From positions 4,075,983 to 4,139,982 of the forward strand of contig OZ244950.1 in assembly GCA_965222435.1 (NCBI GenBank): a stretch of DNA of 64,000 nucleotides, read 5' to 3'. Both the position numbers and the translations under genes were made by a program. Positions 22,661 to 46,100 of the stretch are shown here, one piece after another. This DNA comes from Candidatus Poribacteria bacterium (GTDB lineage Bacteria > Poribacteria > WGA-4E > PCPOR2b). Each line of letters starts with the position of its first letter. The stretch's first letter is position 1. Below the pieces are notes generated by a model. It was not told the DNA's origin. It worked only from the letters and a program-made list of their open reading frames with translations, and made no database searches.

Positions 22661-22811
22661 GAAAGAGAAATCCTCCGTTGAGTTAGTTCATTAGTTCATT
22701 GGTAGTTCATTGTTCAATTGTGGTTACGGCATACGGAGTATGCCTACTACTTTGGGTCATTAGTTCATTGGTTTATTTCACGCATCAGCGGAATCTATCG
22801 ATCCTGAAAAA

Positions 22812-26514: not shown

Positions 26515-28422
26515 TCATGTTGAATCTTGGTCAGTTGATTCCGGTGTTTCCGTTTTGGCGGTCAGATCCAAGCCAGGGACGTATTGGCTCACGGTCTTAG
26601 CGAGATCCTGAGCATCAATCCCCCCAAAATTCAGGACCTCTTTCAGCATTGGTAGTGCTGCACCAGCCTGCAAAATGGATCCGAAAATCTTACCCATGTT
26701 CCCGCCCGGAGCACCGTTTCCAGCTCCGTTTCCGCCAAGGTCAAGGATGCGGATGCTTTCAATCTGTTCCGCGGGTTTCATCAATTGACCTGTGACTTCG
26801 GGCAGGGATTGGATCAGTTTCAACAGCGCCTCGTTATTCAGAATCCGCTGATCCGCGGTGTTCTTCGCTTCAATAAGTGCCTCTTCCCCTTCCGCCTTCG
26901 CTTTTGCTTCAACCAAGAGTGCCTCAGCGAGCATCTTCTGCGCTTCTGCTCTGAGAGTGGCGGCTTCTCGCTCCGCTTTAGCGGCCTCGATAACAGCGTA
27001 GGCTTCGACATTTGCCAGTCGTTCCTTTGAAATGCGCTCTTCATCCGCCTCCTGTTCGGCTCCGATTAACGCGATTCGGCTATTACGCTCGGCTTCCTCA
27101 ATCGCTTCCACCGTCAAGACTTGGGCTTCAGATTTGGTCCGCTCAGCGGTTGCAGCCAACCGATCTGTAGAGGCAATTTCGAGTTCCTTCTCCTTCACCG
27201 CAATCTGAATTTCGCTTGCGGCTTGGGTCTCTTTTTCTTCTCGATTTCTCTCAACAAGCACGATTCGCCTTCTAACATTGGCTTCCTCGATTGCCTGTTG
27301 TTGACGGACGCGCGCTTCTTCAACGGTGCGTTCCTGCTCAATTCGGGCTTGTTCAATTGCTTGGTCTCGCTCAATTTCAGTAGCTTGAACTTCTTGCTCC
27401 TGAGACACACGCGCAGTCTCCAGGGCCCTTTTCTGTTCTATCTCCGCTTCTTGGATCTGCCGCTCCTGATCAATTCGAGCGGTTTCAATCCGCTGTTTCT
27501 GCTGGATCTGCGAAGATTGTACCGCTTCTTCCTGACGGATACCCGCCTCCTCAAGGGCTTGTTGTTGCTGAAGTTCTGCCTCTTTGACGATACGTTCTTG
27601 TTCCGCTTTATTCGTCTCAACCTCTTTGCGCTGTATCTCTTGGGCAAATGCCAGTCGCTTTTCGACCTCTAGGCTCTCTGTCTGCGTTGCCTCCTCCTGC
27701 TGCTTGATCGCCAAGTCTGCTCTCAGTTTATCTTCCTCTTGTTTGACTCTGTTTTCATGCTTAATTCGTTCCGTTCTTGTTTGCCGTTCTTGAACCTCTT
27801 GATTGATAGTCTGAATGGCAACCACATCAAAACGGTTGTTTGCATCAAGTTGGTCGAGAGGGGTTTGATCGAGGTTCGTCACTGCAACACTTTCGAGTTG
27901 AAAACCGTTCTGTTCAAGATCATCTTTGCAGCTTTCCCGAACCTGATCTGAAAAATCTTGACGTTTTTCATGAAGTTCTTGAAGATCCATTGTTGCTGCC
28001 ACACTCCGTAGTATCCCAACCAGTTTTCCTTCAAGCAGAGCTTTCACATTCTCCGGCTCCAAGGTTTTATCCCCAAGGCTTGCAACCGCACTAAGGACAT
28101 CCTGTTCATTGGGTTCAATCTTCACATAGAATTGGGCTTCAATATCAACACGCAGGCTGTCTTTTGTGATTAAGGCATCCGGTCCAGTCCGTTGAACTAA
28201 AAGCTGCATGGTATTCAACGAAACCAGTTGTGTTGCTTTTGTCAGTGGATTAACGATTTTACCGCCAAAGACAACACTCTTCCTTTTACCGCCTGAAATG
28301 ACCAATGCGGCATCAGCGGGTGCCTTTTTATATAGCGCTTTGTAGGTAAGAAACATAATCAGGAAAAACGCTGCAATTACAGCGATAATACCGAAAAAAG
28401 GCGTCAAGCTCAGGCCTTCCAT
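26515..28422 (-). CDS. flotillin-like SPFH/band-7 protein (YqiK/FloT-like) with long Glu/Gln-rich coiled coil
   Basis: N-terminal TM, SPFH core (…LVQRTGPDALITKDSLRVDIEAQFYVKI…), then repetitive QEEA/EQER heptad-like repeats. Confidence 0.8.
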   Translation of the reverse strand: MEGLSLTPFFGIIAVIAAFFLIMFLTYKALYKKAPADAALVISGGKRKSVVFGGKIVNPLTKATQLVSLNTMQLLVQRTGPDALITKDSLRVDIEAQFYVKIEPNEQDVLSAVASLGDKTLEPENVKALLEGKLVGILRSVAATMDLQELHEKRQDFSDQVRESCKDDLEQNGFQLESVAVTNLDQTPLDQLDANNRFDVVAIQTINQEVQERQTRTERIKHENRVKQEEDKLRADLAIKQQEEATQTESLEVEKRLAFAQEIQRKEVETNKAEQERIVKEAELQQQQALEEAGIRQEEAVQSSQIQQKQRIETARIDQERQIQEAEIEQKRALETARVSQEQEVQATEIERDQAIEQARIEQERTVEEARVRQQQAIEEANVRRRIVLVERNREEKETQAASEIQIAVKEKELEIASTDRLAATAERTKSEAQVLTVEAIEEAERNSRIALIGAEQEADEERISKERLANVEAYAVIEAAKAEREAATLRAEAQKMLAEALLVEAKAKAEGEEALIEAKNTADQRILNNEALLKLIQSLPEVTGQLMKPAEQIESIRILDLGGNGAGNGAPGGNMGKIFGSILQAGAALPMLKEVLNFGGIDAQDLAKTVSQYVPGLDLTAKTETPESTDQDST

Positions 28423-30420: not shown

Positions 30421-31010
30421 TGGAGGTGGCGGGACACGTTAATCCCCCGGTTTCCCAGAGGCGTGGACTATATCTTCATCCAACCAAAATGATGGAGCCT
30501 AGCGTATTATAGGAGACCTAGATTTGTCGCTGACATTATCTCCTATCATTACAGTCTCTACAGGACCATACAATCCCTCGGTATTGCCATAAGATGTCTC
30601 CATCTCTTAGGTTTCACCGATGTAAGCTAGATTTAATCGAGGAGGTTGCCCTCCAAGTCGACCAAACTGATCGAACCCGCGTCCGAGAACACTTCAATAA
30701 AGGCTACTACATGCTTAGCATAAGTTTTAGTGTTTCGTCCACAGGACTCACTTATGCAGGATTCACCGCGGACTATCTCAAGTTAATTCTCGCGCCATGC
30801 CCCTTGAGAACAAGTAAGGCGCATAGCCCGTTTGTTGACGTCGGGCTAACTCGACGGGACCGCAAATTAGCCGGACGAGCCACTTTATTAAGCGGCTAGA
30901 GCCAATTCTTCATCGGCAATTAAATTGTTTCCGCCTGTTTAACGAGGCCTGCGGAGACCTCGGCATGCAACCTTTATGTCATCTACTCTCGTCGAAACCT
31001 TTTCACCCCC
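30421..31010 (-). ncRNA. ssrA: tmRNA (ssrA) gene interrupted by a group I intron in the T-loop. 5' exon 30670-31010, intron 30435-30669, 3' exon 30421-30434. The CCA end is not encoded
   Basis: Reverse strand reads 5'-GGGGGTGAAAAGGTTTCGACGAGAG…GGTTGCATGCCGAGG…GCCTCGTTAAACAGGCGGAAACAATTTAATT-GCCGATGAAGAATTGGCTCTAGCCGCTTAATAA…CTAAAACTTATGCTAAGCATGTAGTAGCC…GGACGCGGGTTCGAT. This tracks E. coli tmRNA block by block, with a tag reading frame ending …ALAA-TAA-TAA. The T-stem 3' strand, acceptor strand and discriminator (TCCCGC-CACCTCC-A, with the G3·U pair) sit 235 nt further on. Confidence 0.85.
30435..30669 (-). other. group I intron (235 nt) inserted in the tmRNA T-loop
   Basis: 5' exon ends in U, which pairs with G of the intron guide sequence GGTCGA against exon TCGAT. 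P2 hairpin GGAGG-GCAA-CCTCC. R-like element GTAGAGACTGTAA and the conserved S/P7 element AAGATATAGTCC. Intron ends in G. Joining the exons regenerates the canonical T-arm GCGGG-TTCGATT-CCCGC. Confidence 0.75.
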
Positions 31011-34027: not shown

Positions 34028-37000
34028 ATGAATAGACGATTTTTTCGTGGCATCTGGTATGCGATCATGATCGGTCTTACCGGTGGCGCACTCAGCGTAG
34101 CTGCGGCCGCCTCTCAGTCATCAGAAGGAAACGATATACACTATTGCGCTGTTATTGATAGTCAGTCGAACACACAGCATTCAGACCAATTCTCCAACCG
34201 CAATTATGCCCGATCCGCTGCGGCGAGTGTGAATTCCGGCGAACCCCGCACAGTGCGAATGATTTACTTCACTCCCAAGGGTCGTCCCTATCGTGCTGAT
34301 ATCATTCAGCAGATGAAAAATGGGATCCGCAGAATTCAGACTTTCTATGCCGAACAGATGGAGACACACGGCTACGGGCAGACAACCTTCCGCGTTGAGA
34401 CCGACTCCCAAGGCGAGCCGATAGTCCATCGTGTGGAGGGGCGACACACCAATCGCCGCTATCTTGATGAAACGGACGATACTGTGTATGCCGAGATCGG
34501 GGAAAGGTTCGACTTTTCTGCGAACGTTTATCTCATCTTTATTGATAATAGTATCAATGCAATTAATATTGGCAATAGAAATTTCGCAGGTGTCGGAGAC
34601 AGAGGCGGCAAAAATAGCGGCTATGCGTTGATTGCTGGCAGATTTAATCGGGGGTTGGTGATACATGAACTGGGACACGCCTTCGGACTGCAGCACGATT
34701 TCAGCAACAGTGCGTATATCATGTCGTATGGCAAAAGACCAAATCAGTTATCCTCATGCAGTGCCAAATTCCTGTCCACGCATTCCTATTTCAATCCCGA
34801 TACTTCAATTGCAGAAAGACGTCCACCAACCATCAAACTCATTTCATCGCGTAGATATCCGGCGGGTTCAAGGAGCACCCCGATTCACCTCGAAGTCAGC
34901 GATTCAGAAGGACTTCACCAGGTACTCCTATGCGTTACAACAAGAGGATTTCACGAGGCTGCCGGATACATGGAAGTAAAGGAATGTCGTGAATTGAGGG
35001 GCAAAAGAGATGCCGTCGTTAGATTCGACTATGATGGCGTTATTCCGTCTAATCGCTCTACAAGCCTTTCCAATCCTAGGGCGCATCCGATTCGTATCGA
35101 AGCCGTTGATATGAATGGGAATATGAGCCGAACCGATTTTATACTGTTTTCTGAAACGCTTCAGCCGCTGTCGAAAATCTCAGGAGATAACCAGCGTGGC
35201 TTACCCAATACACCGCTACCCATCCCACTTATCGTTGAAGTGCGGGAGGTGAACGACGGTTCTGCACGCAGGAAAGTTCCCGTCACTTTTACCGTCACCG
35301 CAGGCGATGGATCGCTCAGTGTGAAGCGCACTGAAACTGATAAAAATGGACGGGCACAGAGCACACTCACACTAGGACCAAATCTGGGAACAAACACCGT
35401 TGAGGTGTCTGCTGCGGGATTTACAGTCACCTTTAACGCCGTGGCGGAAGCTGCGGTACACATTCCCGATGCCAACCTTCGCACTGCGATTGAGACCGCT
35501 CTCAAGGTAGCACCGGGCGGACCGATAGCCCCGGTAGAGATAGAAACCTTGCGATCCCTTGAGGTAAGGGAGACGACGATCCGTAATTTGACCGGGTTGG
35601 AGCTAGCAACCAATCTGAGCGATTTGAGACTGGTGGAAAACGGTATAGTAGATGTGTCGGTACTTTCGGGTTTGACCAACCTGACAAGGCTAAATCTTGG
35701 GGGCAATTCGATATCGGACCTCTCACCTCTTGAGGGATTAGCAAATCTGACAGAGCTGCTTCTTGGAAACAACAACATCTCAGACATCTCACCCTTGTTA
35801 ACCAATACCGGATTGGGGAGTGGAGATACTGTTAATTTGCGGGGAAACCCCCTGAGTTATCAATCTATCCATACACATATTCCAACCCTCCAGAGCAGAG
35901 AGGTTACGGTGGAGTTTGACAACCGAACGCCTACGCCCCCTCTGAAAATTTCAGGTGATAACCAACAGGGCACCCCCGGCGCAGCACTCGATCGACCGTT
36001 TGTCGTTGAAGTGCAGGATGGAGCGAGCACCCCATTTGAGGGGGTTCCAGTCACATTCACCGTCACCGCCGGCGGTGGGACAGTCCAGCCAGAAACCACT
36101 TTGACCGATCAAAACGGCAGGGCAGAAAGTACCCTTACCCTAGGCATCGAGGCAGTTACTAACACCGTTGACGTGAGTGTTGAAGGAATTTCGGAGCGGG
36201 AGACTTTTAACACAGCTATCGAAATTGAGTTTGACCTCTCCATACCATCAAACATCAGCCTGATTCACGTCCCCCTAAAGGTGACAACCGTTGACGGTGT
36301 GGCACAAAATATCACATCTATCGCCGAACTCTACGATGCACTCGGTAGCGCGTCAAAAATCAACTTCCTCATCACCTATGACTCACAAGCTCAAGAATGG
36401 CATAGCTATTTCGGTACTGCCGACACAGGCACTTCTGCCGACAAGGCATTGACCGATGACATGGGGATTATCGCCGGTATGATAGCCTCAGCTTCTATCC
36501 GTCTGAGTGGAAATCCCCTAGGGACAAACGGAAACAGTACCATCACCTTAAACCAAGGTCTCAATCTTGTGGGGCTGCCATTGAGAGATTCAAGAATAAC
36601 CCGTGTGAACCACCTGCTTGCGCTCGACGGGATTGGGGGTAACGTCCCTGCGATTATCCTCACCGATAGCGGAGAGTTTAAGTCGGTCGGACAGGTAGAC
36701 GACCCCAGTAATATACCCATCATTGGAGGACAATCCTTTATCCTGAACGCTCAGGGGGCAGCGACGGTTGAAATTTCCGGCGAGGGATGGTATAACAACT
36801 CTGCAATCGCCACCGCACCACCCGTAGGGAATGCAGATTTGCATTCCTCAATTACACGTATCAAAGTAACCAATACCACTCCCGTCTTGGCGTTGAGAGG
36901 TTCAATCGTTGATGAAAAAGTGGGCTTAAAGATGGAAGGTTTCCGTGTAACCGTCAAGAACCTTTCAACAGGCAGAGAAATTACCACTGTTACAGGTACT

Positions 37001-37384
37001 GATGAGATAGGTTATCGAATTACCACCGTTGACATAAAAACAGGACGAGCGGCTACGATTGGGGATATCCTTGAAATCTCGGCTGAGTCTTCCGATCCGT
37101 TAATCGGTGTGCAGCCGTTGTGGTATACCATAACCGCCAAAGATGTGAAGCGGAGTCAGATTCAATTGCCGGGACTGGTCGCTTACGAGATACCAACAGA
37201 AACGGAACTGTTGTCCAACTACCCAAATCCGTTTAACCCGGAGACATGGATTCCGTATCGGTTGGCACAGGACGCTTTTGTTACCCTGACAATCTACGAC
37301 GTGAACGGTCGGATTATCCGTACCCTCGACGTGGGGCATCGGATTGCTGCGGCCTACGAAAGTCGGTCAAAGGCAATCCGCTAG
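34028..37384 (+). CDS. large secreted metzincin-type zinc metalloprotease with Ig-like (Big) domains, leucine-rich repeats and a T9SS C-terminal sorting domain. The reading frame is interrupted by an in-frame TAG at 37382-37384 inside the sorting domain and would otherwise run to 37489
   Basis: Signal peptide; HELGHAFGLQHD (HExxHxxGxxH metzincin motif); repeated SGDNQ…FTVTAG Big-like modules; LRR tract (LTNLTRLNLGGNSISDLSPLEGLANLTELLLGNNNISDISPL); C-terminus NYPNPFNPETWIPYRLAQDAFVTLTIYDVNGRIIRTLDVGH…ESRSKAIR[TAG]DGKNRLGEPVTSGIYFYALTAGDYFATRKMVILK matches the T9SS/Por secretion tail. Confidence 0.7.
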   Translation: MNRRFFRGIWYAIMIGLTGGALSVAAAASQSSEGNDIHYCAVIDSQSNTQHSDQFSNRNYARSAAASVNSGEPRTVRMIYFTPKGRPYRADIIQQMKNGIRRIQTFYAEQMETHGYGQTTFRVETDSQGEPIVHRVEGRHTNRRYLDETDDTVYAEIGERFDFSANVYLIFIDNSINAINIGNRNFAGVGDRGGKNSGYALIAGRFNRGLVIHELGHAFGLQHDFSNSAYIMSYGKRPNQLSSCSAKFLSTHSYFNPDTSIAERRPPTIKLISSRRYPAGSRSTPIHLEVSDSEGLHQVLLCVTTRGFHEAAGYMEVKECRELRGKRDAVVRFDYDGVIPSNRSTSLSNPRAHPIRIEAVDMNGNMSRTDFILFSETLQPLSKISGDNQRGLPNTPLPIPLIVEVREVNDGSARRKVPVTFTVTAGDGSLSVKRTETDKNGRAQSTLTLGPNLGTNTVEVSAAGFTVTFNAVAEAAVHIPDANLRTAIETALKVAPGGPIAPVEIETLRSLEVRETTIRNLTGLELATNLSDLRLVENGIVDVSVLSGLTNLTRLNLGGNSISDLSPLEGLANLTELLLGNNNISDISPLLTNTGLGSGDTVNLRGNPLSYQSIHTHIPTLQSREVTVEFDNRTPTPPLKISGDNQQGTPGAALDRPFVVEVQDGASTPFEGVPVTFTVTAGGGTVQPETTLTDQNGRAESTLTLGIEAVTNTVDVSVEGISERETFNTAIEIEFDLSIPSNISLIHVPLKVTTVDGVAQNITSIAELYDALGSASKINFLITYDSQAQEWHSYFGTADTGTSADKALTDDMGIIAGMIASASIRLSGNPLGTNGNSTITLNQGLNLVGLPLRDSRITRVNHLLALDGIGGNVPAIILTDSGEFKSVGQVDDPSNIPIIGGQSFILNAQGAATVEISGEGWYNNSAIATAPPVGNADLHSSITRIKVTNTTPVLALRGSIVDEKVGLKMEGFRVTVKNLSTGREITTVTGTDEIGYRITTVDIKTGRAATIGDILEISAESSDPLIGVQPLWYTITAKDVKRSQIQLPGLVAYEIPTETELLSNYPNPFNPETWIPYRLAQDAFVTLTIYDVNGRIIRTLDVGHRIAAAYESRSKAIR

Positions 37385-37948
37385 GATGGGAAAAACAGGT
37401 TGGGCGAACCCGTGACGAGCGGAATTTACTTTTACGCCCTGACTGCGGGGGATTACTTCGCCACGCGGAAGATGGTGATCCTCAAGTAGGAGGCATACTC
37501 CATAGTAGTAGGCATACTCCGTATGCCGTAACCTCCACACACCCCGTAGGTGGGGCATCTTGCCCCACTCTCCACTGACCTCACTCCCTCATCGTAGGCG
37601 GGGCCTCCCCGGTGACGGGATCCTCTCGGGCTTGCTCCGCCCACGGCACCGCCAGTCGTTTGAGCTAATTTCGTGATATTTTGAGCGTCGGAAACCTAGT
37701 TGGACAATTCATTGTCCGTCGGAATGCACAATAAGTCGTGCTACTATTATCTCAATCCATCCTTCGCTCCAGAGGAGCGATATGTCTATAGAATGCCGAC
37801 ATCTCTGATCCCCGCGCTCCAGAGGAGCGCAATGTGTATAGCAATCTCAATTCACCACAACTTAAGACCCATCGGAGTGTTAGGTATATAACAAGAGAAC
37901 TCGCATTTATCTCATCTGAACTAACATCGCAAAAATATAGGGCATATC

Positions 37949-39496
37949 ATGAACAATTTAATCCGCAAAAAGATTATTCTGTGCTTACTGGATTCGGATC
38001 CCAAGTCCGCCGATGAAATTGCCAATGAGATTGGCGAATCATTGGAAACTGTAGATAATCTACTTACAGGATTGGTATCAGAAAGCATCTGTGAAAAAGT
38101 AAGCCAAGATGAGATCAGTCAGTACGCTATCAAAAAAGATGTTGAAACTTTTGCAAAACTAGCTGAAGATTTCCTTTCAAGCCCAGAAGAGCATGTGCAG
38201 GAAACAGAACAGTTTATTAGTTCCAACTATTACCTAACCAGAATTGACTATGAATTAGTCGATCATGTTCTTAGCCGCTTTCATCTTGGTTCAGTATATG
38301 GAACTAATGAAATGAAAAACGTTCTAGGACGAATCTTGCTCGCGTCACCCTCAGCTTTGATTTCTGCCTTACATGATGACACCACATTCTTTGATGGAAT
38401 GCAGTCAAGCCGGAGTCAGTTCGATTCTTCGGACGCAACTCGTGACTGGCTGAATGGAATCCTTTATTCACAGTTCCAGATGCCACTATTGGAAAAACTT
38501 ATTGCTGATATGAAAGTTCTCACTTACGGTATTCTCTTCGCTAAACTTCAACTGCAGGCAGTAAAGATAAGCATCCAAGTCGGCTTGGCAACCCCCACCG
38601 GAATGTATGTTGAATCAATGGGAGGAAGTATTTCATGCTTAAATAGAGCAATGGAGGAATTGTCCGCTGGACAACCTGTTTCGGCTGTTAATCCGATGGC
38701 TTTTTCCTATGATGGTTTAGCATTGATGTATCTTGGGGAGTTCCAAACCGCTCTGGAAAATTTCGATAAAGCACTTGCATTAATGCAAGCCCCAATGCAA
38801 AAAGCAATTATATTGAACAACAAAGGAGTAGCTTTTCTCAGGTTCAACCAATATCAAAAAGCAATTGAATATTTTGAAGAAGGTATTGCATTTGATTCAG
38901 ATGGCAACATTCCTCAATTACATGAAAACAAACAGGTAGCTGAAGAATACTTAGCTCGTGCGACTGACACTGATAACTTAACTGAACCGACAAAAATTCG
39001 TTTTATTCATGGGCAACCTGTTCCTTTTGAGGAAACACTGTTCTACGAATTTAAGGAAATTAAGGGCGTAAATCCAATTCGTGCGATTATAAAAGATTCT
39101 AACGAATACGCTGTTGCTTTTCTCAATCGTGAAGGTGGACGTATTTTTTGGGGAGTAAGAGACAGCGATAGAACCACAATAGGTGTAATTCTTAATGAAC
39201 AACAGAGAAATGAGACACGAACTAAAGTATCTGAAAAACTGGGGGCCGTACAACCCTCAATCAGCGTTGAAGATTGGCACCTTAAATTTCATGACGTTTA
39301 TAATTTACAGGGGGAAACTGTCGAAGATTTGTGGGTTATTGAACTGGTAATCCCACCTCCACAGGAAATAGATGTTTTTTATACAGGCAGCAGTGACCTT
39401 TTCGTCAAGACTGAAGGTGGCAGACATAAATTACAAGGACAGCAAATAACAGAGTTTATACGCAGGCGTTTTCAGAATGATACAGAAACAAGCTAA
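37949..39496 (+). CDS. winged-HTH / TPR / AlbA_2 (Schlafen-like) domain protein, putative regulator or defence-associated sensor
   Basis: N-terminal wHTH (KKIILCLLDSDPKSADEIANEIGESLETVDNLLTGLV). Central TPR-like helices (…YLGEFQTALENFDKALALMQ… AIEYFEEGIAF). C-terminal AlbA_2 signature (ETLFYEFKEIKG…AVAFLNREGGRIFWGVRDSDRTTIGV…LWVIELVIPP…LFVKTEGGRH). Confidence 0.55.
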   Translation: MNNLIRKKIILCLLDSDPKSADEIANEIGESLETVDNLLTGLVSESICEKVSQDEISQYAIKKDVETFAKLAEDFLSSPEEHVQETEQFISSNYYLTRIDYELVDHVLSRFHLGSVYGTNEMKNVLGRILLASPSALISALHDDTTFFDGMQSSRSQFDSSDATRDWLNGILYSQFQMPLLEKLIADMKVLTYGILFAKLQLQAVKISIQVGLATPTGMYVESMGGSISCLNRAMEELSAGQPVSAVNPMAFSYDGLALMYLGEFQTALENFDKALALMQAPMQKAIILNNKGVAFLRFNQYQKAIEYFEEGIAFDSDGNIPQLHENKQVAEEYLARATDTDNLTEPTKIRFIHGQPVPFEETLFYEFKEIKGVNPIRAIIKDSNEYAVAFLNREGGRIFWGVRDSDRTTIGVILNEQQRNETRTKVSEKLGAVQPSISVEDWHLKFHDVYNLQGETVEDLWVIELVIPPPQEIDVFYTGSSDLFVKTEGGRHKLQGQQITEFIRRRFQNDTETS

Positions 39497-41111
39497 AAAC
39501 GCTAAAGATGCTACGTGGAGGGAAACTATGTCTAACACAAATACCGCACGCAACGAAACAGCAAAGCCCGAAAATCAATCCCTACCCACCTTTGAACCAC
39601 GCGGCGATCGAAAACTGATCTACACAAGCGATCCGTCCAATCTCGCATTCTATCAGGTGGGACGACAGGTCGATCACATGACCAATGCAGCAATAGCGAA
39701 GGCAGACCCCGCCCGACGGGAAGATCTGGTCCAATGGGTGGATGCACTGGCGCATCACGGCGTAGACACCTACGCACAAGCGATCTACGCACAGGGATGG
39801 ACAGTCTTTTTCCGTTCAGATCGGTTTGAATACGACGCAAGACCCCAACATCAACGTTTTACCTCCATGATGGACGCCGGTATCACACCGTTGGAAGTGC
39901 TGATCGAGCAAACACACAAGCGAGGCATGGAGTTCGTCGCAAAGTTTCGCATGAACGACCGCCACGGCAACGGAGATCAGGGTGCGCGGTTCATACTGGA
40001 CAACCCTGCGTGGCAGCTAGAGGAATTTCCCGGCGGTCAGGACTTTAGCTTTGAGCCTGTACGAGATTACGTCTACTCCGTCGCCGATGAAGTAGTAGAA
40101 CGGTTCGATGTTGACGGTTTGCTGTTCAACTATATCCGGCACGGACACTGTTTTCCCACCGACGTTGCCCGCGACCGTCACCCGGTGATGACCGAGTTTT
40201 TGCGACGGATACGCGAGATGTTAGACCGGCGCGGAGCGCAGCAACGGAAAACCCTAACGCTGGGGGTAATGATTCCGCAAACGTTGGAAGAGTGCTATAA
40301 CTTAGGGTTCGATATCCCCACATGGATTCGGGAAGGTCTCATCAACTACATCTGTCCCTGCGACTTCCACTATGCCGATTTCAACGCGCCCTATGAGGCA
40401 TTCAGCGAGTTGACACGCGGATCGGATTGTCTGTTGTACCCTACGCTGGCCCCCATGATGTGTCGTGGGGATGCAACGACACTACTCAAGCCTGAAAATT
40501 ATCGGGCACTCGCACAAAATTTTTACGGCGCAGGTGCTGACGGCGTTTCGGTTTTCAACTACCAGTACCACTGGGCACGAAAGGGAGGGACCGCCCGCTA
40601 CCCGGGACCCGTCGAAGGCTATCCGCTCTCATTGAGCTATCTGCGCGATCTACGTGACCCAAAAACAGTAGCGAGTCGGACGCGCCACTACCGTTTCCAC
40701 CCTCTATGGGGCGGCACATCACCAACCGGAGCTATGAAGGACGACAAACTAACCCTCACCCGCGAGGTCGGCTCAACTGGAGAATACCGTTTCCGCCTCT
40801 GCGAACAATTTGCACACGGAACGCAAGTCGTCCTGTACTTCAGCGCACAGGGATTGCTCCCCACAGATGAAATCACCGTCGAACTCAACGGGACCAAAAT
40901 CCAAGATCTTCAGCGCGTCTTCCATCCAGATGGTCGATTGGAAACATTCGGACGACCGCTGCCACCGTTTTCAAGCGTGTGGTTCAACCTGAATCAGGAG
41001 ACGCTTAACAACGGGGACAACCCTCTAAAAATCCAACTCACACACATTGCCGCCGATACAAACAGCGAAGTTGTCATTGACGAAGTTGAGGTAGTGGTGA
41101 TGCCTGCGTAG
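39477..41111 (+). CDS. hypothetical protein, possibly a glycoside-hydrolase-like TIM-barrel (GHL-type) protein
   Basis: 544-aa ORF overlapping the AlbA_2 gene by 20 nt; the start may be the later Met at 39527. MNDRHGNG and other blocks weakly resemble glycoside-hydrolase-like families. Confidence 0.3.
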   Translation: MIQKQAKNAKDATWRETMSNTNTARNETAKPENQSLPTFEPRGDRKLIYTSDPSNLAFYQVGRQVDHMTNAAIAKADPARREDLVQWVDALAHHGVDTYAQAIYAQGWTVFFRSDRFEYDARPQHQRFTSMMDAGITPLEVLIEQTHKRGMEFVAKFRMNDRHGNGDQGARFILDNPAWQLEEFPGGQDFSFEPVRDYVYSVADEVVERFDVDGLLFNYIRHGHCFPTDVARDRHPVMTEFLRRIREMLDRRGAQQRKTLTLGVMIPQTLEECYNLGFDIPTWIREGLINYICPCDFHYADFNAPYEAFSELTRGSDCLLYPTLAPMMCRGDATTLLKPENYRALAQNFYGAGADGVSVFNYQYHWARKGGTARYPGPVEGYPLSLSYLRDLRDPKTVASRTRHYRFHPLWGGTSPTGAMKDDKLTLTREVGSTGEYRFRLCEQFAHGTQVVLYFSAQGLLPTDEITVELNGTKIQDLQRVFHPDGRLETFGRPLPPFSSVWFNLNQETLNNGDNPLKIQLTHIAADTNSEVVIDEVEVVVMPA

Positions 41112-41234
41112 CACGCTTGTGAAGCATCAACTCATTTTCATCTCTTATTTTTTCAGGAATCGTGCTATAATTTTACTGGCTATCCCTAAGTCTTAACCTA
41201 GCGCAGATTCCAAATAAATTGGAGGTAATGAAAG

Positions 41235-41969
41235 ATGGAAATGAGAAGCTGGTTACAATCCCCCTCAAGTCTCACACACGGTAACATCATTAGACGAGAA
41301 ATCTTCTCCAAGAAAGACCCCGACGATCCCCACAAACCGGGGGCAATCCTCAACTCGATTGATAGCTTCTCCCGGTGCTATCTTGAATCACGAATCGCAT
41401 CAATACCAACCGCTTTCGACGATCGGCAACTGATTTTCTACATCGTTGATGGAGAGGCAATTTTCGAGGGCGGCGACCTCAAGCAGGAGGTCCGCGAAGG
41501 AGACGGCATTATCGTGCCGCCGGGAACGACGCATGTCTTAAACAACGAGGCAAACACAACGCCCTTAGAATTTCTGATATTGGAAGAAACCCTTGCCGAT
41601 GCTCCAGGAACACCCCGCGAAGATGTCCTTATCAGAAACTACCGGGAGCAACACCTGAATCAAGGGCATTGGACCCATCTCGTCCACCCCATCTTCGGAG
41701 AGGTTGATGGACTTGCCAAGCTACATTTCGTCCTAATGGTAACAATCGACGCAATGCAGACCCCCGATACCCATGGGCATGCCGACGATATGGATGAGGT
41801 GTGGTATATGCTCGAAGGCAACGGCATCCACGTGGTAAGCCAGAATGTCTACCGGCAAGTTCCGGGCGATGCGGTCTCTGTCGCACCGTCAAACCCAGGA
41901 CATACCCTCATCAACGATACGGAGGAACCGCTCAAGACGTTCTACTTTCGACGCAGTGCAGACCCCTGA
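41235..41969 (+). CDS. cupin (bicupin-like) domain protein, copy 1. The 3' end is altered by a frameshifted 202-bp tandem duplication
   Basis: About 90% aa identity to the ORF at 42512-43240. GDGIIVPPGTTH and HGHADDMDEVWYMLEGNGIHV cupin motifs. Ends …FYFRRSADP where the paralog ends …FYFARYSR. Confidence 0.5.
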   Translation: MEMRSWLQSPSSLTHGNIIRREIFSKKDPDDPHKPGAILNSIDSFSRCYLESRIASIPTAFDDRQLIFYIVDGEAIFEGGDLKQEVREGDGIIVPPGTTHVLNNEANTTPLEFLILEETLADAPGTPREDVLIRNYREQHLNQGHWTHLVHPIFGEVDGLAKLHFVLMVTIDAMQTPDTHGHADDMDEVWYMLEGNGIHVVSQNVYRQVPGDAVSVAPSNPGHTLINDTEEPLKTFYFRRSADP

Positions 41970-42263
41970 TACCCATGGGCATGCCGACGATATGGATGAG
42001 GTGTGGTATATGCTCGAAGGCAACGGCATCCACGTGGTAAGCCAGAATGTCTACCGGCAAGTTCCGGGCGATGCGGTCTCTGTCGCACCGTCAAACCCAG
42101 GACATACCCTCATCAACGATACGGAGGAACCACTCAAGACGTTCTACTTTGCCCGTTACACGCGGTGATACGATGAGAGGAGAAAGCGAATGTCCACGCT
42201 GAAAGCGGGTGCCGCACAGACCAATATCACGCCGCCGCTCGGCGCATACCTCGCAGCAGTTCA

Positions 42264-42370
42264 GTAGGTTGGGTTGAACGGTTAAAAAGCGAATTCCTAT
42301 CAACGACAATAGAGATGCCGCCTGTCAACAACCCCATCTTATAGATGAGTGTAGTGAAACCCAACACTTT
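42264..42370. repeat. partial copy of the 18388-18611 MITE (5' TIR plus internal GTGAAACCCAACAC block, no 3' TIR)
   Basis: GTAGGTTGGGTTGAACGG…AGTGAAACCCAACAC read directly. Immediately follows a truncated copy of the start of the 43262 gene (MSTLKAGAAQTNITPPLGAYLAAVQ-stop). Confidence 0.5.
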
Positions 42371-42511
42371 AATCCAACTCACGATTAAGTGTTAGGCAGG
42401 TACAAGACCTGCCCCTACGTTGGATTCATGCTCTGTAGGGGCAACCCTCGTGGTTGCCCTTGTTACATAAAGTGCATAACTCCCCATTAGACAAATTGGA
42501 GGTAACGACAA

Positions 42512-43240
42512 ATGGAAATGAGAAGTTGGTTACAATCCCCCTCAAGTCTCACACACGGCAACATCATCAGACGAGAAATCTTCTCCAAGAAAGATCCCGA
42601 TGATCCTCACAAACAGGGAGCAGTCCTCAACCATATCGACAGTTTCTCCCGGTGCTATCTTGAGTCGCGAATCGCGTCAATACCAACGGCTTTGGACGAT
42701 CGGCAACTGATTTTCTACATCGTTGATGGAGACGGCATTTTTGAAGGCGGTGACCTCAAGCAGGAGGTCCGCGAAGGAGACGGCATTATCGTGCCACCGG
42801 GGACCACACATCTCCTAACAAACGAAGCGGAGATGCCCTTAGAATTCCTGATATTAGAGGAGACCCTTGCCGATGCAGAAGGAACACCACGAGAAAATGT
42901 ACTCATCAGAAACTATCGGGAGAACCCCCTTAGTCAGGGGCATTGGACCCATCTCGTCCATCCCATTTTCGGAGCGGACGATGGACTTGTGAAACTGCAC
43001 TCAGTACTGATGGTAACAATTGACGCGATGCAGACCCCCGATACCCACGGCCATGCTGACGATATGGATGAGGTGTGGTATATGCTAGAGGGCGACGGCA
43101 TCCATGTGGTGAGCCAGAACGTCTACCGGCAACTTCCGGGCGATGCGGTTTCTGTTGCACCATCAAACCCGGGGCATACCCTCATCAACGATACAGAGGA
43201 GCCACTCAAGACGTTCTACTTTGCCCGTTACAGTCGGTGA
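42512..43240 (+). CDS. cupin domain protein, copy 2 (intact paralog)
   Basis: 242 aa; same motifs as copy 1; RBS GGAGGTAACGACAAATG. Confidence 0.6.
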   Translation: MEMRSWLQSPSSLTHGNIIRREIFSKKDPDDPHKQGAVLNHIDSFSRCYLESRIASIPTALDDRQLIFYIVDGDGIFEGGDLKQEVREGDGIIVPPGTTHLLTNEAEMPLEFLILEETLADAEGTPRENVLIRNYRENPLSQGHWTHLVHPIFGADDGLVKLHSVLMVTIDAMQTPDTHGHADDMDEVWYMLEGDGIHVVSQNVYRQLPGDAVSVAPSNPGHTLINDTEEPLKTFYFARYSR

Positions 43241-43261
43241 CACCATAGGAGGAGAAAGCGA

Positions 43262-44560
43262 ATGGCTACGCTAAAAGCCGGTGCTGCACAGACCAATATC
43301 ACGCCGCCACTCGGCGCGTACCTTGCAGGTTCACTGAAGGCGCGCCATGCGACGGAAGTCCACGACGAACTCCACGCAAAGGCACTGGTACTTGATGATG
43401 GGACCACGCAACTCGCCTTTGTTATCTGTGATGTTATCTGCATCCCCCGCGAAGTATGTGACGCCGCCAAAGCCTTGATCGCGGAGCGGGTCGGGATTCC
43501 GGGCGAACAAGTGCTGATAGCGGGCACACACACCCACTCCGCGCCTGCAATGAAGCCGGGGTTTGAAACCATTCCCCACCAAGGCTACCTCGATTTCTTT
43601 TCGGTGCGCGTCGCCGATGCCGTTCAGCTAGCAGCGGGACGGGCGCAGCCGGCGAAACTCGGTTACGGCGTTGGAACAGAGTCGCGCTGCGTGTTCAATC
43701 GGCGGTTTCGCATGAAGGACGGCACGGTAAAGATGAATCCGGGGGCTAACAATCCCAACATCGTTGAAACCGTGGGACCCACTGATCCAGACATTGCCGC
43801 GCTTTTCGTCGAGACAGTTGATGGTCAACCGATAGCCGTCCTCGCTAACTATGCTCTACACTATGTCGGTGCGCCGGGTCACACGGTTTCCGCAGACTAT
43901 TTCGGGCTGTTTGCCGAAGAGATTCAAAAGATGGCAGGCGCAGGATTCGTCGCAATGCTCTCCAACGGTTGTTCCGGCGACATCAATAACATCAATGTCC
44001 ATCACCCGCTGACGGACCGACGCCCCTTTGCCCAGACACGGAAGGTCGCCCGGATAGTTGCAGCAGAGGTGTGGCGAACGTGGCAGACCACCCCAATGCA
44101 CGATGACTTGGGGCTTTCGGCGGCACAGACGGAAATTACGTGCGGCATACGGAAACCGACCAGCACAGAACTCGCCGAGTACGAGGCAAAATGGGCAAAC
44201 GCAAGCGATGATCCGACTGTCGATGAACTCTACGCACATGAACGCATTATAGTCAACGGGTGGGAAGATACCCGCACGACACCGATCCAAGCCTTCCGTA
44301 TCGGAGACTGCGGGGTCGCTGCATTGACGGGAGAAATCTTCTGTCAATTCGGTATTGACCTCAAGGCTGCCTCGCCGCTCAAGCCGACGTTTATCATCGA
44401 GCTTGCCAACGACTACACCGGCTACGTCCCAACCCCGATTGGGCATGAGCATGGCGGCTATGAGACATGGCTAGCGCGGAGCAGCTACCTCGCTCCCGAC
44501 GCCGGTGGACAGATGGTTGATGCGGCGTTGCAATTACTGAACGGTTTCACCGCCCCGTAA
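43262..44560 (+). CDS. neutral/alkaline ceramidase-like N-terminal domain family hydrolase (hypothetical)
   Basis: N-terminus KAGAAQTNITPPLGAYLAG…HDELHAKALVLDDGTTQLAFVICDVI resembles the ceramidase-like N-domain family. 432 aa. Confidence 0.45.
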   Translation: MATLKAGAAQTNITPPLGAYLAGSLKARHATEVHDELHAKALVLDDGTTQLAFVICDVICIPREVCDAAKALIAERVGIPGEQVLIAGTHTHSAPAMKPGFETIPHQGYLDFFSVRVADAVQLAAGRAQPAKLGYGVGTESRCVFNRRFRMKDGTVKMNPGANNPNIVETVGPTDPDIAALFVETVDGQPIAVLANYALHYVGAPGHTVSADYFGLFAEEIQKMAGAGFVAMLSNGCSGDINNINVHHPLTDRRPFAQTRKVARIVAAEVWRTWQTTPMHDDLGLSAAQTEITCGIRKPTSTELAEYEAKWANASDDPTVDELYAHERIIVNGWEDTRTTPIQAFRIGDCGVAALTGEIFCQFGIDLKAASPLKPTFIIELANDYTGYVPTPIGHEHGGYETWLARSSYLAPDAGGQMVDAALQLLNGFTAP

Positions 44561-44589
44561 TCAGGAATAACCCAATTCCTTGACACAGC

Positions 44590-44618
44590 CCTAATGAACC
44601 AATGAACCAATGAACCAA
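44590..44618. repeat. tandem octamer repeat (AATGAACC)x3, one member of a dispersed intergenic (W)ATGAACYA family
   Basis: Same motif, often as inverted pairs or palindromes, at 4378-4425, 5233-5260, 15021-15045, 20546-20563, 22681-22720, 22750-22775, 30388-30408, 32112-32148 and 56851-56872. Confidence 0.6.
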
Positions 44619-44637
44619 CATATTAGAAAGGACAAAT

Positions 44638-45702
44638 ATGGCTAAATACAAAATTGCAGTAATTCGAGGAGACGGCATTGGGATCGAGGTGATGGAGGAG
44701 GGGCTCAAGGTTCTCAACATTGTCGCCGACAGATACGGCATCACATGGGACTTTGTCGAGTTCCCTTGGGGGTCAGACTACTACTTCGAGCATGGGCACA
44801 TGATGCCACCCGATGCCCTCGATATACTGGCGGAGTTCGACCAGATCTATCTTGGCGCAGTCGGGCACCCTGACATCCAAGACCACCTTACACTCAACGG
44901 GCTTTTGCTGCCTATCCGGCGCAAATTCGATCAGTACGTCTGCGAGCGACCAAGTGTCCTCTATCCCGGTATCAACGCACCGCTCAAGGACAAAGAGGCT
45001 TGGGACATCGATCTCGTGGTGATAAGGGAGAACACAGAGGGCGAGTATGCCAACGTCGGCGGATTTCAGTACCAAGGGTTCCCCGAAGAGATCGGCGTAC
45101 AGGTCGGCGTATTCACCCGCCACGGCAGCGAGCGCGTCATCACCCACGCCTTCGAGCAAGCGCGGGTACGAAATAAGAAGCGCAAAGTCACATCGGTCAC
45201 CAAGTCCAACGCACAGGGTTACGGCATGATTGTATGGGATACCGCCTTCGAGCGAGTTGCGGAAAAGTATCCCGACATAGAAACGGAATCGTTGCTTGTG
45301 GACGCAGCGTGTATGGATTTCGTCCGGAGGCCGGAGGACTTCGATGTTGTCGTCGCTAGCAACCTGTTTGGGGATATCCTCACGGACATCGGCGCGATTA
45401 TCACGGGGAGCATGGGACTGGCTCCGAGCGGCAATCTCGATCCACAACGCCGATTCCCGTCGATGTTCGAGCCGGTTCACGGTAGCGCACCGGACATTAT
45501 GGGTCAAGGCATCGCCAATCCGTTGGCAGCAATTACCTCCGGTTCGATGATGCTGCGCTTCGTCGGCGAGACGGAAGCAGCAGACACGATAGACGCAGCC
45601 GTATTAAAGGTAGTCGAAAAGGGCGAAACCCTTCCCCCCGACCTCGACGGTCAAGCCACAACCTCACAGGTCGGGGACGCAGTAGTAAGCGCACTCAGCT
45701 AA
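44638..45702 (+). CDS. tartrate dehydrogenase / 3-isopropylmalate dehydrogenase family (beta-decarboxylating dehydrogenase)
   Basis: MAKYKIAVIRGDGIGIEVMEEGLKVL N-terminus; NLFGDILTDIGA substrate/metal motif; 354 aa. Confidence 0.8.
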   Translation: MAKYKIAVIRGDGIGIEVMEEGLKVLNIVADRYGITWDFVEFPWGSDYYFEHGHMMPPDALDILAEFDQIYLGAVGHPDIQDHLTLNGLLLPIRRKFDQYVCERPSVLYPGINAPLKDKEAWDIDLVVIRENTEGEYANVGGFQYQGFPEEIGVQVGVFTRHGSERVITHAFEQARVRNKKRKVTSVTKSNAQGYGMIVWDTAFERVAEKYPDIETESLLVDAACMDFVRRPEDFDVVVASNLFGDILTDIGAIITGSMGLAPSGNLDPQRRFPSMFEPVHGSAPDIMGQGIANPLAAITSGSMMLRFVGETEAADTIDAAVLKVVEKGETLPPDLDGQATTSQVGDAVVSALS

Positions 45703-45876: not shown

Positions 45877-46100
45877 TCTTTCGCTCCAGAGGAGCGATAT
45901 GTCTATAGAAAGCGATGCGTCCAATCTCCGCGCTCCAGTTGCTTTGAATCCCGATCTTATCGGGGAGGAGCGCAATGTGTATAGCAGCAATAACAAATCG
46001 TCGCAATCCAAGCCCCAGAGGGGCGACTGCATGTTTTGTATAGGAGGGAATTCCGATTCCCGACTCTTGCGTCGGCTGCTAACGCTTGGTTTATCAACTA
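45877..46100. repeat. composite dispersed intergenic repeat: hairpin-ATGTNTATAGMA units plus a conserved 70-nt module (TGTRTAGGAGGGAATTCCGATTCCCGACTCTKGCGTCGGYTGCTRACGCTTGGTTTATCAACTAGCA)
   Basis: Related copies at 15036-15125, 37765-37850, 45877-46100 and 51400-51600. The 70-nt module is about 90% identical between 46030-46100 and 51520-51590. Confidence 0.6.

Follow-up and report, generated by a model that had tools for sequence, protein, structure and literature searches.

A Schlafen-type protein with a winged-helix and tetratricopeptide-repeat chassis, a probable self-contained defence nuclease, encoded beside a GH156-like glycosidase in Candidatus Poribacteria

Introduction

Do two adjacent genes, one for a Schlafen-like protein and the other for a large TIM-barrel protein, work together, and if they do not, what is the first of them? 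The question is raised by a stretch of 64,000 nucleotides (nt) of Candidatus Poribacteria DNA (GenBank assembly GCA_965222435.1, contig OZ244950.1, positions 4,075,983 to 4,139,982), which we call the window. A preliminary description, made from the sequence alone, had proposed that these genes, here gene 1 and gene 2, form a translationally coupled sensor and effector pair, a candidate defence or regulatory module. Both open reading frames (ORFs) are indeed present on the + strand, with 515 amino acids (aa) for gene 1 and 544 aa for gene 2 in its longest form (39477-41111). We find that gene 1 represents an apparently new architecture among the prokaryotic Schlafen (pSlfn) defence nucleases, and consider it rather probable that it is a self-contained, single-chain nuclease of this type, present here as an orphan copy beside an unrelated glycosidase that resembles glycoside hydrolase family 156 (GH156).

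Poribacteria, which are uncultivated, are known as symbionts of sponges. That prokaryotic Schlafens act as antiviral transfer RNA (tRNA) nucleases was demonstrated only in 2025-2026. The gene 1 family, with hundreds of full-length homologues, offers a compact, well-conserved example for asking whether Schlafens cooperate with DNA modification systems and whether they act on DNA or on tRNA. Its loci also put on record the turnover of a defence gene in Poribacteria, with orphan copies, remnants and a persistently low G+C content (GC). The features discussed are listed in Table 1; loci and proteins from other genomes are referred to by L and P numbers.

Table 1. Features of the gene 1 and gene 2 region, with positions in the window
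Feature	Position	Strand	Basis or location
Gene 1, 515-aa winged helix-turn-helix (wHTH) / helical / tetratricopeptide repeat (TPR) / Schlafen protein (pSlfn-type), intact	37949..39496	+	ORF, Pfam, AlphaFold model, Foldseek
wHTH, aa 1-62	37949..38134	+	AlphaFold2 topology; weak HTH profile matches
Family-specific helical domain with low-confidence hairpin, aa 63-248	38135..38692	+	Model; column identity
Short TPR module, ~2.5 repeats, aa 249-341	38693..38971	+	Pfam; PDB consensus-TPR matches; model
Schlafen/AlbA_2 nuclease-like domain, aa 356-510	39014..39478	+	Pfam; phmmer alignment; Foldseek
Motif E362-x4-E367-x-K369	39032-39055	+	Gene 1 Schlafen domain
D405	39161-39163	+	Gene 1 Schlafen domain
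Spacer, 31 nt, with GGAGGG Shine-Dalgarno sequence of gene 2	39497..39527	+	Sequence; five-locus junction alignment
Gene 2, 527-aa GHL10/GH156-like glycoside hydrolase, native syntenic block	39528..41111	+	Pfam, AlphaFold2, Foldseek, profile
1118-aa secreted-type metallopeptidase-like / leucine-rich repeat (LRR) / Big_1 protein	34028..37384	+	Pfam
Spacer upstream of gene 1, short dispersed repeats resembling miniature inverted-repeat transposable elements (MITE) or repetitive extragenic palindromes (REP)	37385..37948	.	Repeat search

The Schlafen domain of gene 1

The C-terminal part of gene 1 matches SLFN_AlbA_2 (PF04326) over aa 362-493, with 46.5 bits against a Pfam gathering score of 25.3. 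The AlbA_2/Schlafen assignment made beforehand was therefore right, and the signature on which it relied (E..EFK, GG..F.GV.D) aligns with the active site of SLFN13 and SLFN11. When gene 1 is aligned by phmmer to rat SLFN13 (5yd0) and human SLFN11 (7zel), their PF.E....EFK and GVDD segments match E362, E367 and D405, the motif of gene 1 reading E362-TLFY-E367-F-K369. These three acidic residues are the counterparts of E209, E214 and D252 of SLFN11 ('SLFN11 E209A' stands in the title of a PDB entry). E362, E367 and K369 do not vary among 29 homologues of gene 1, and D405 is conserved in at least 90% of them. In a recent study of prokaryotic Schlafens, Ex4(E/D)xK is the motif that defines active Schlafen nucleases, both bacterial and human (Perez Taboada et al., Nat Microbiol 2026, PMC13056530). 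Judged by its sequence, the Schlafen domain of gene 1 looks catalytically competent.

Profile searches of the PDB also matched gene 1 to SLFN13, SLFN11, SLFN14 and SLFN12 chains. The AlphaFold2 model of gene 1, with the 29 homologues as input, has a mean predicted local distance difference test score (pLDDT) of 79.7, and in the Schlafen region, modelled as an alpha/beta domain at aa 356-510, values are mostly about 66-92 per ten-residue block. When this model was compared to the PDB using Foldseek, the top 24 matches were all Schlafen or SAMD9 tRNase structures (E 5e-6 to 3e-4, probability 1.0), with SLFN13, SLFN11, SLFN12, SLFN5 and SLFN14 at the top of the list and the bacterial AlbA_2 protein DIP2311 following after these 24. 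Gene 1 and mammalian SLFN13 and SLFN11/12/14 share their catalytic C-lobe fold (Foldseek E about 5e-6, probability 1.0) at 18-21% sequence identity; the N-lobe, the linker and the superfamily 1 (SF1) helicase domain are missing from gene 1. Unlike their mammalian counterparts, bacterial single-lobe Schlafen domains must oligomerise to form an active cleft (bioRxiv 10.64898/2026.05.29.728809).

Gene 1 can be compared to two groups of described bacterial proteins. As presented in the study cited above, pSlfn1-55 (e.g. RorSlfn5) have, like gene 1, a single-lobe Slfn/AlbA_2 domain with Ex4(E/D)xK, and carry the nuclease domain and a non-catalytic, sensor-like region in one polypeptide; detection of a phage protein by the fused sensor domain was demonstrated experimentally to release tRNA cleavage (PMC13056530). 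According to the same study they are enriched beside defence genes, as is the gene 1 family, and trigger-activated tRNA cleavage would be the mechanism expected by analogy. Gene 1 differs from them in having its Schlafen domain at the C-terminus, in partnership with a wHTH/helical/TPR chassis, a composition that is not named among the frequent ones in the main text of that study (HisKinase, HTH, DUF5929, Ig-like, DUF262, TBP-like; PMC13056530). Its family is, in addition, essentially confined to Poribacteria, and the window copy lies outside any defence island. In Schlatpase (AlbA_2 with a GHKL HATPase_c_4 domain) and SLFN-pAgo, as in gene 1, a Schlafen effector stands under an attached oligomerisation or sensor module (bioRxiv 10.64898/2026.05.29.728809). 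Compared to Schlatpase, gene 1 has no GHKL ATPase but a TPR/helical chassis instead, and carries the Schlafen domain at the opposite end of the protein. Schlatpase genes occur in the same Poribacteria islands as the gene 1 family, a few genes downstream (L008 14478-15893).

The chassis of gene 1

The remainder of gene 1 comprises three parts. The TPR repeats mentioned in the preliminary description are there: TPR_1 scores 45 bits against 27.8 over aa 250-320, TPR_12 and TPR_2 are matched as well, consensus-TPR structures in the PDB are hit, and the model has five helices in this region. As for the N-terminal winged helix, the fold is clear in the AlphaFold model, where aa 1-62 form helices at 2-13, 21-28 and 32-44 and strands at 48-53 and 56-61 (H-H-H-beta-beta, pLDDT 87-94), but it remains sub-threshold by sequence, with E about 0.003-0.007 in profile searches. 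At the equivalent position of chassis relatives of gene 1, wHTH matches to TrmB, RPC82 and TFIIE-alpha were obtained. The intervening region, aa 63-248, has no Pfam match and includes a hairpin modelled with low confidence (aa 204-246). Column identity within the family is 0.48-0.57 at aa 141-260, as against 0.69-0.77 in the TPR and Schlafen parts, and this most variable stretch is a plausible candidate for a recognition surface. NCBIfam yielded TPR and HTH matches only, all of them sub-threshold; PHROGs had no match for gene 2 and, for gene 1, one weak match of the Schlafen region to a 'DNA helicase' family.

The chassis is rare, and is found with other domains. A search with aa 1-250 of gene 1 against 1.84 billion representative proteins (E <= 1e-3) returned 51 matches only, and the whole chassis family amounts to about 50 clusters at 50% identity. 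Those outside the gene 1 family measure 470-770 aa and have the wHTH-helical-TPR region as their C-terminal part, with an Mrr_cat restriction-endonuclease domain (seven checked) or an HD-CE domain (two) at the N-terminus. Gene 1 aa 6-331 align to aa 223-547 of one of them, P0250, with 35% identity (E 2e-50), and aa 63-248, for which Pfam had nothing, have a homologous stretch in the Mrr_cat and HD-CE proteins. Since the chassis is shared and the nuclease or hydrolase ends are interchangeable, the Schlafen domain would be the effector and the chassis the sensor or regulator.

One Mrr_cat-wHTH-TPR protein, P0258 (621 aa), is encoded 35 nt downstream of a 1277-aa Eco57I/MmeI_Mtase/TaqI_C methyltransferase, distant kin of the one found in the Poribacteria islands described below, and upstream of a 457-aa AlbA_2-HATPase_c_4 gene. 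This three-gene run (L043 1236-8629, JGI 3300031554), on a metagenome contig of non-Poribacteria type, is by its gene content a parallel to the Poribacteria island with another effector. A second Mrr_cat-chassis protein, P0309, is not beside a methyltransferase. Outside Poribacteria, the nearest Schlafen domains are fused to an N6_N4 DNA methyltransferase (L030 8927-10531 and L031 8858-10519; Chloroflexi, Prosthecobacter) and, in another case, to a PemK/MazF toxin domain (L027 9722-10867, Bryobacterales).

Distribution and usual neighbourhood of the gene 1 family

All named homologues and all full-length genomic loci of gene 1 are from Candidatus Poribacteria, and the family counts more than 120 full-length homologue clusters with 58-92% identity and one architecture throughout. 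A survey with one genome per GTDB species gave 26 Poribacteria loci with 10-kb flanks, 19 of which had enough upstream sequence for a methyltransferase count. Clustering of the flanking ORFs showed an island with the order 1130-aa phospholipase D (PLD, HKD)-SNF2 helicase, ~1090-aa Eco57I/MmeI-type methyltransferase and gene 1 homologue; further downstream follow an AlbA_2-HATPase_c_4 protein, an AAA_15/21 ATPase with a small partner and a DprA-like protein, with toxin genes nearby. The methyltransferase is upstream on the same strand in 15 of the 19 loci, and in seven the gap to the gene 1 homologue is below 60 nt. Copies elsewhere are found among AAA_15 ATPases (L009) or upstream of ComF-SMC (L016, L025), and one metagenome-assembled genome holds three (L003, L016, L017). 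No relative of gene 1 turned up in a scan of viral contigs, which thus gave no evidence of carriage by phages.

PADLOC identifies the island methyltransferase as REase_MTase_IIG (1143 bits, full length) and the helicase as 'HKD+Snf2'/DrmD-like. By these assignments, the usual neighbours of the gene 1 family resemble Type IIG restriction-modification (R-M) and DISARM-like systems (SNF2 helicase DrmD, Eco57I-type methylase DrmMI, PLD nuclease DrmC). In contrast to DISARM, DrmA and DrmB were not seen at the islands, and neither described system includes the gene 1 family, which supplies the cassette's third gene; the window has no Type IIG R-M or DISARM genes. The defence-associated reading of gene 1 is upheld and strengthened by the conserved motif, the Schlafen fold, the presence of the family mainly in restriction and defence islands and the association of its chassis with other nuclease effectors.

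Two groups of island ORFs deserve mention. A low-GC protein of ~540 aa, with no Pfam or PADLOC match, adjoins gene 1 homologues on either side at many island loci (L002 7031-8653, L004 7170-8801, L006 721-2355, L007 12501-14135, L013 2340-3968, L018 1619-3250, L023 11701-13329); a D...ELK pattern at its C-terminus recalls PD-(D/E)xK nucleases. Small ORFs (about 150 and 180 aa) that were first clustered with gene 1 proved to be a clustering artefact with no real similarity.

Gene 2 and its junction with gene 1

The statement that gene 2 had no confident family does not hold. It passes the Pfam threshold for GHL10 (PF02638; 36.1 bits, gathering score 27.9), and its AlphaFold2 model is a (beta/alpha)8 barrel with a C-terminal beta-sandwich (pLDDT 90.7, predicted template modelling score 0.90). 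By far the best Foldseek matches in the PDB are those to the GH156 enzyme EnvSia156 (6s00/6s04/6rzd), with template modelling (TM) scores of 0.73-0.80 over ~545 columns and E about 1e-34 (0.75-0.80 and 7e-35 for 6s00 alone), Cwp19 being the next structural match. EnvSia156 (6rzd) is also reached by sequence, with E 1.3e-31 using the gene 2 family profile and 4e-14 using the single sequence. R141/D144/H146, R204 and N344 of gene 2 align to R129/D132/H134, R202 and N346 of EnvSia156 and are invariant in 29 homologues. In GH156, His134 is the acid catalyst, Arg129, Arg202 and Asn346 form the carboxylate-binding triad and Asp14 is the base (PMC6811678). The Asp14 equivalent is probably the invariant D35 of gene 2, the N-terminus lying outside the HMMER alignment. 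Gene 2 and EnvSia156, an inverting exosialidase (6RZD/6S00; PMC6811678), have the RMND.H motif in common, in which H146 is equivalent to His134; they differ in overall sequence (~19% identity) and in the replacement of Phe203 by His205. From sequence and model together, gene 2 is most simply read as a GH156-like glycosidase, probably of sialidase type, in a catabolic block.

The conserved block runs from 39528 to 45702 and consists of the GH156-like glycosidase, two bicupins, a neutral-ceramidase-like protein and an Iso_dh-family dehydrogenase. The co-occurrence of sialidase-like and ceramidase-like enzymes could, speculatively, point to the breakdown of sialylated glycolipids. The bicupin paralogues are in tandem (41235-41969 and 42512-43240), and the 3' end of the first carries a 202-nt tandem duplication (41746-42150, 2.0 copies, 98% identical) that yields an extra ORF fragment (41845-42168). 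The same bicupin repeat structure is found in L036 and L042.

The longest-ORF call makes gene 2 overlap gene 1 by 20 nt, with its ATG at 39477 lying out of frame within the last codons of gene 1, and it was on this overlap that translational coupling had been proposed. In an alignment of five junctions, however, the equivalent of ATG 39528 and its purine-rich Shine-Dalgarno sequence are kept in all five, whereas the upstream ATG is absent in L040, and independent gene calls of L035, L040 and L042 leave 28-31 nt between the genes. In the window itself, ATG 39528 follows a GGAGGG at a suitable distance. A conserved downstream start, a non-conserved upstream ATG and these gaps leave overlap-based coupling unsupported; the 20-nt overlap is a product of choosing the longest ORF. 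No terminator-like site was found on the + strand between the two genes, in a promoter and terminator scan that stayed at background level.

Conserved co-occurrence of the pair, which had been set beforehand as a test, was not found either: in the 26 Poribacteria loci, the 10 kb on either side of gene 1 hold no close homologue of gene 2, the only match in the survey being one of 24% identity ~8 kb away (L001), and no locus has any other neighbour in common with the window. A scan of JGI metagenomes with gene 2 confirmed no loci.

Gain, loss and evolutionary rates

The order CoA-transferase, 1118-aa LRR/Big_1 protein, gene 1, gene 2 (GHL10), two cupins, ceramidase-like protein and Iso_dh was found only in the window and in L035, L040 and L042, which form one syntenic clade. 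Two further loci show the block without an intact gene 1. L037 is an empty site, in which just 97 nt separate the CoA-transferase from the GHL10 gene. In L036, whose flanking DNA is ~90% identical to that of L042, gene 1 is reduced to its last 89 codons (aa 426-514), fused to a short spacer, and the GHL10 gene and its Shine-Dalgarno sequence are untouched. The LRR/Big_1 gene tracks gene 1, being present in L035, L040 and L042 and absent from L036 and L037; no functional link is shown by this.

In the four intact copies, synonymous divergence (dS) is 0.38-0.58 for gene 1 and 0.28-0.82 for its neighbours, and such similar values indicate vertical co-inheritance. The ratio of non-synonymous to synonymous divergence (dN/dS) is 0.35-0.46 in gene 1, compared to 0.20-0.24 in the LRR protein, 0.10-0.16 in gene 2 and 0.05-0.07 in the CoA-transferase, and the protein of gene 1 evolves roughly three- to seven-fold faster than those of neighbouring genes. 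Together with the losses in L036 and L037, these ratios indicate that gene 1 is functional, fast-evolving and dispensable, and that gene 2 is independent of it. The adjacency of the two genes reads as vertically inherited synteny in one clade, not as a functional module.

GC is about 0.40 in gene 1 and about 0.54 in the flanks, which suggested a very recent insertion. This was rejected, because dS equals that of the neighbours in the four genomes and the low GC is family-wide: it is 0.34-0.42 in every genome and context (window; L001-L026, L034, L035, L040, L042), with neighbours at 0.43-0.56. Candidate explanations for a GC that has stayed low despite a dS of ~0.5 accrued in place are a codon or expression constraint and repeated exchange. 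A neighbour-joining tree of gene 1 copies did not separate them by genomic context, and its shape was too star-like for dating when gene 1 came to the GHL10 locus.

Interpretation and alternatives

If gene 1 is a self-contained defence nuclease, any sensor and effector would both lie within it: the winged helix, the variable helical domain and the short TPR would be the sensory or regulatory chassis, and the C-terminal Schlafen domain the nuclease effector. By analogy with the pSlfn proteins, the nuclease would be held in check by the chassis until a cue from a phage is detected. Gene 1 protein would oligomerise and thereby complete the Schlafen active cleft, a role for which the TPR/helical part is the obvious candidate, and activated gene 1 would cut tRNA or another nucleic acid, blocking phage replication.

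A number of points weigh against this interpretation. The sensor role of the chassis is one that we infer, and the TPR is short. The fusion of the nearest relatives outside Poribacteria to DNA methyltransferases hints at a DNA-related function. The neighbours of the window copy are a secreted LRR protein and a glycosidase, with no recognisable defence gene adjoining; a tblastn search of the whole 64-kb window gave no match to the island helicase or methyltransferase, and the copy could be a paralogue with another role. Because the spacer to gene 2 has 31 nt and no terminator-like site on the + strand, the two genes may be co-transcribed, with some regulatory coupling. Finally, PADLOC v2 (2023) found no significant model in either window protein, a result that is uninformative for gene 1 since that database is older than pSlfn.

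The island neighbourhood suggests another explanation, namely that the family is the nuclease or accessory subunit of an R-M-like system with the PLD-SNF2 helicase and the Eco57I/Type IIG-like methyltransferase, and that the window copy is a displaced paralogue, acting in trans or being lost. We regard this as unlikely, even though the same-strand position downstream of the methyltransferase in 15 of 19 loci, with seven gaps below 60 nt, speaks for it, as do the placement of P0258 35 nt after its methyltransferase and before an AlbA_2-HATPase_c_4 gene, the methyltransferase fusions of L030 and L031, and the decay of one copy in the window arrangement (L036). Intact copies are, however, under purifying selection without a methyltransferase in at least three contexts (the window arrangement, L009 and L016/L025), P0309 has no methyltransferase next to it, the methyltransferase association of a chassis outside Poribacteria is a single locus, and defence genes cluster in islands without working together. 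A DNA-binding regulator would be a different matter altogether: its wHTH and AlbA_2 domains would bind without cleavage and control whatever lies nearby, the GH156-like block here and the restriction island elsewhere. The N-terminal wHTH fits such a role, AlbA_2 proteins are often annotated 'putative DNA binding domain-containing protein', the AlbA_2 regulator-like DIP2311 is among the Foldseek matches, and genes 1 and 2 are on the same strand with a short spacer and possibly co-transcribed. Yet a complete E-x4-E-x-K with its Asp, invariant or nearly so in the homologues, is hard to reconcile with it, and the same chassis carries a bona fide nuclease or phosphohydrolase (Mrr_cat, HD-CE), which marks the variable end as the effector. 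The putative target block is moreover kept without gene 1 in L036 and L037, the neighbourhoods of the family are mutually unrelated, and a high dN/dS is atypical for a dedicated local regulator; we consider this explanation improbable.

Least credible, to a degree that leaves it barely worth entertaining, is the module first proposed, with gene 1 as sensor and the TIM-barrel protein of gene 2 as effector in translational coupling. The two genes do share a strand, 31 nt apart, and have stayed adjacent in four genomes over a dS of about 0.3-0.7. Against this, the overlap is not conserved and the start codon of gene 2 is downstream; gene 2 encodes an ordinary GH156-like glycosidase whose sugar-binding and catalytic residues are conserved, lies inside a conserved metabolic block, and remains intact after the loss (L037) or decay (L036) of gene 1; in 26 other species, no close homologue of gene 2 lies within 10 kb of the gene 1 homologue; and the evolutionary rates of the two genes differ about threefold. 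The pairing is thus restricted to one syntenic clade, and the idea of a sensor and effector pair falls with it. An ordinary enzyme as gene 2, with no conserved linkage to gene 1, is also the outcome that the preliminary description had itself named as refuting its proposal.

Returning to the single-chain nuclease, a wider proposal can be put forward tentatively, and we rate it as doubtful: that the chassis defines a rare, undescribed modular immune family, with Schlafen at the C-terminus or an Mrr-type PD-(D/E)xK or HD-CE domain at the N-terminus, that acts as restriction partner of Eco57I/Type IIG-like methyltransferases, the helicase being optional, and that the window gene has been displaced and acts alone or in trans. 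The mirroring of the island by the P0258 locus and the fusions of Schlafen domains to methyltransferases suggest, on thin evidence, cooperation of chassis nucleases with large gamma-class methyltransferases. If the proposal were true, it would amount to a new kind of R-M-like system in which a Schlafen nuclease can be the restriction effector.

Repeats and other features of the window

The locus had been described as flanked by repeat-rich DNA, which is correct for the spacer upstream of gene 1 but not for the one downstream of gene 2, where no repeats were found. Two kinds of hairpin-containing dispersed repeats, GCTCCAGAGGAGC... and GGCATACTCCGTATGCC..., occur in intergenic DNA of this genome and its relatives, and the pairs representing them are 37763-37843 with 45880-45986 (+) and 37504-37533 with 22722-22751 (-). 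The copy upstream of gene 1 has an internal deletion relative to that at 45880, and the same element is found upstream of gene 1 in L042. These repeats are probably dispersed MITE/REP-like elements and not cassette boundaries.

In a search of the window with Rfam, only a transfer-messenger RNA (tmRNA) was found, and nothing in the repeat-rich spacer. In related loci an SmpB gene is close by in the equivalent block. Genes for tmRNA are classic integration sites of islands, but this one (30668-31002, -; RF00023, 139 bits) is ~7 kb from gene 1. Between 26001 and 28000, over a 635-aa ORF (26515-28422, -), the AT skew (-0.27) and the GC skew (-0.12) are strongly negative.

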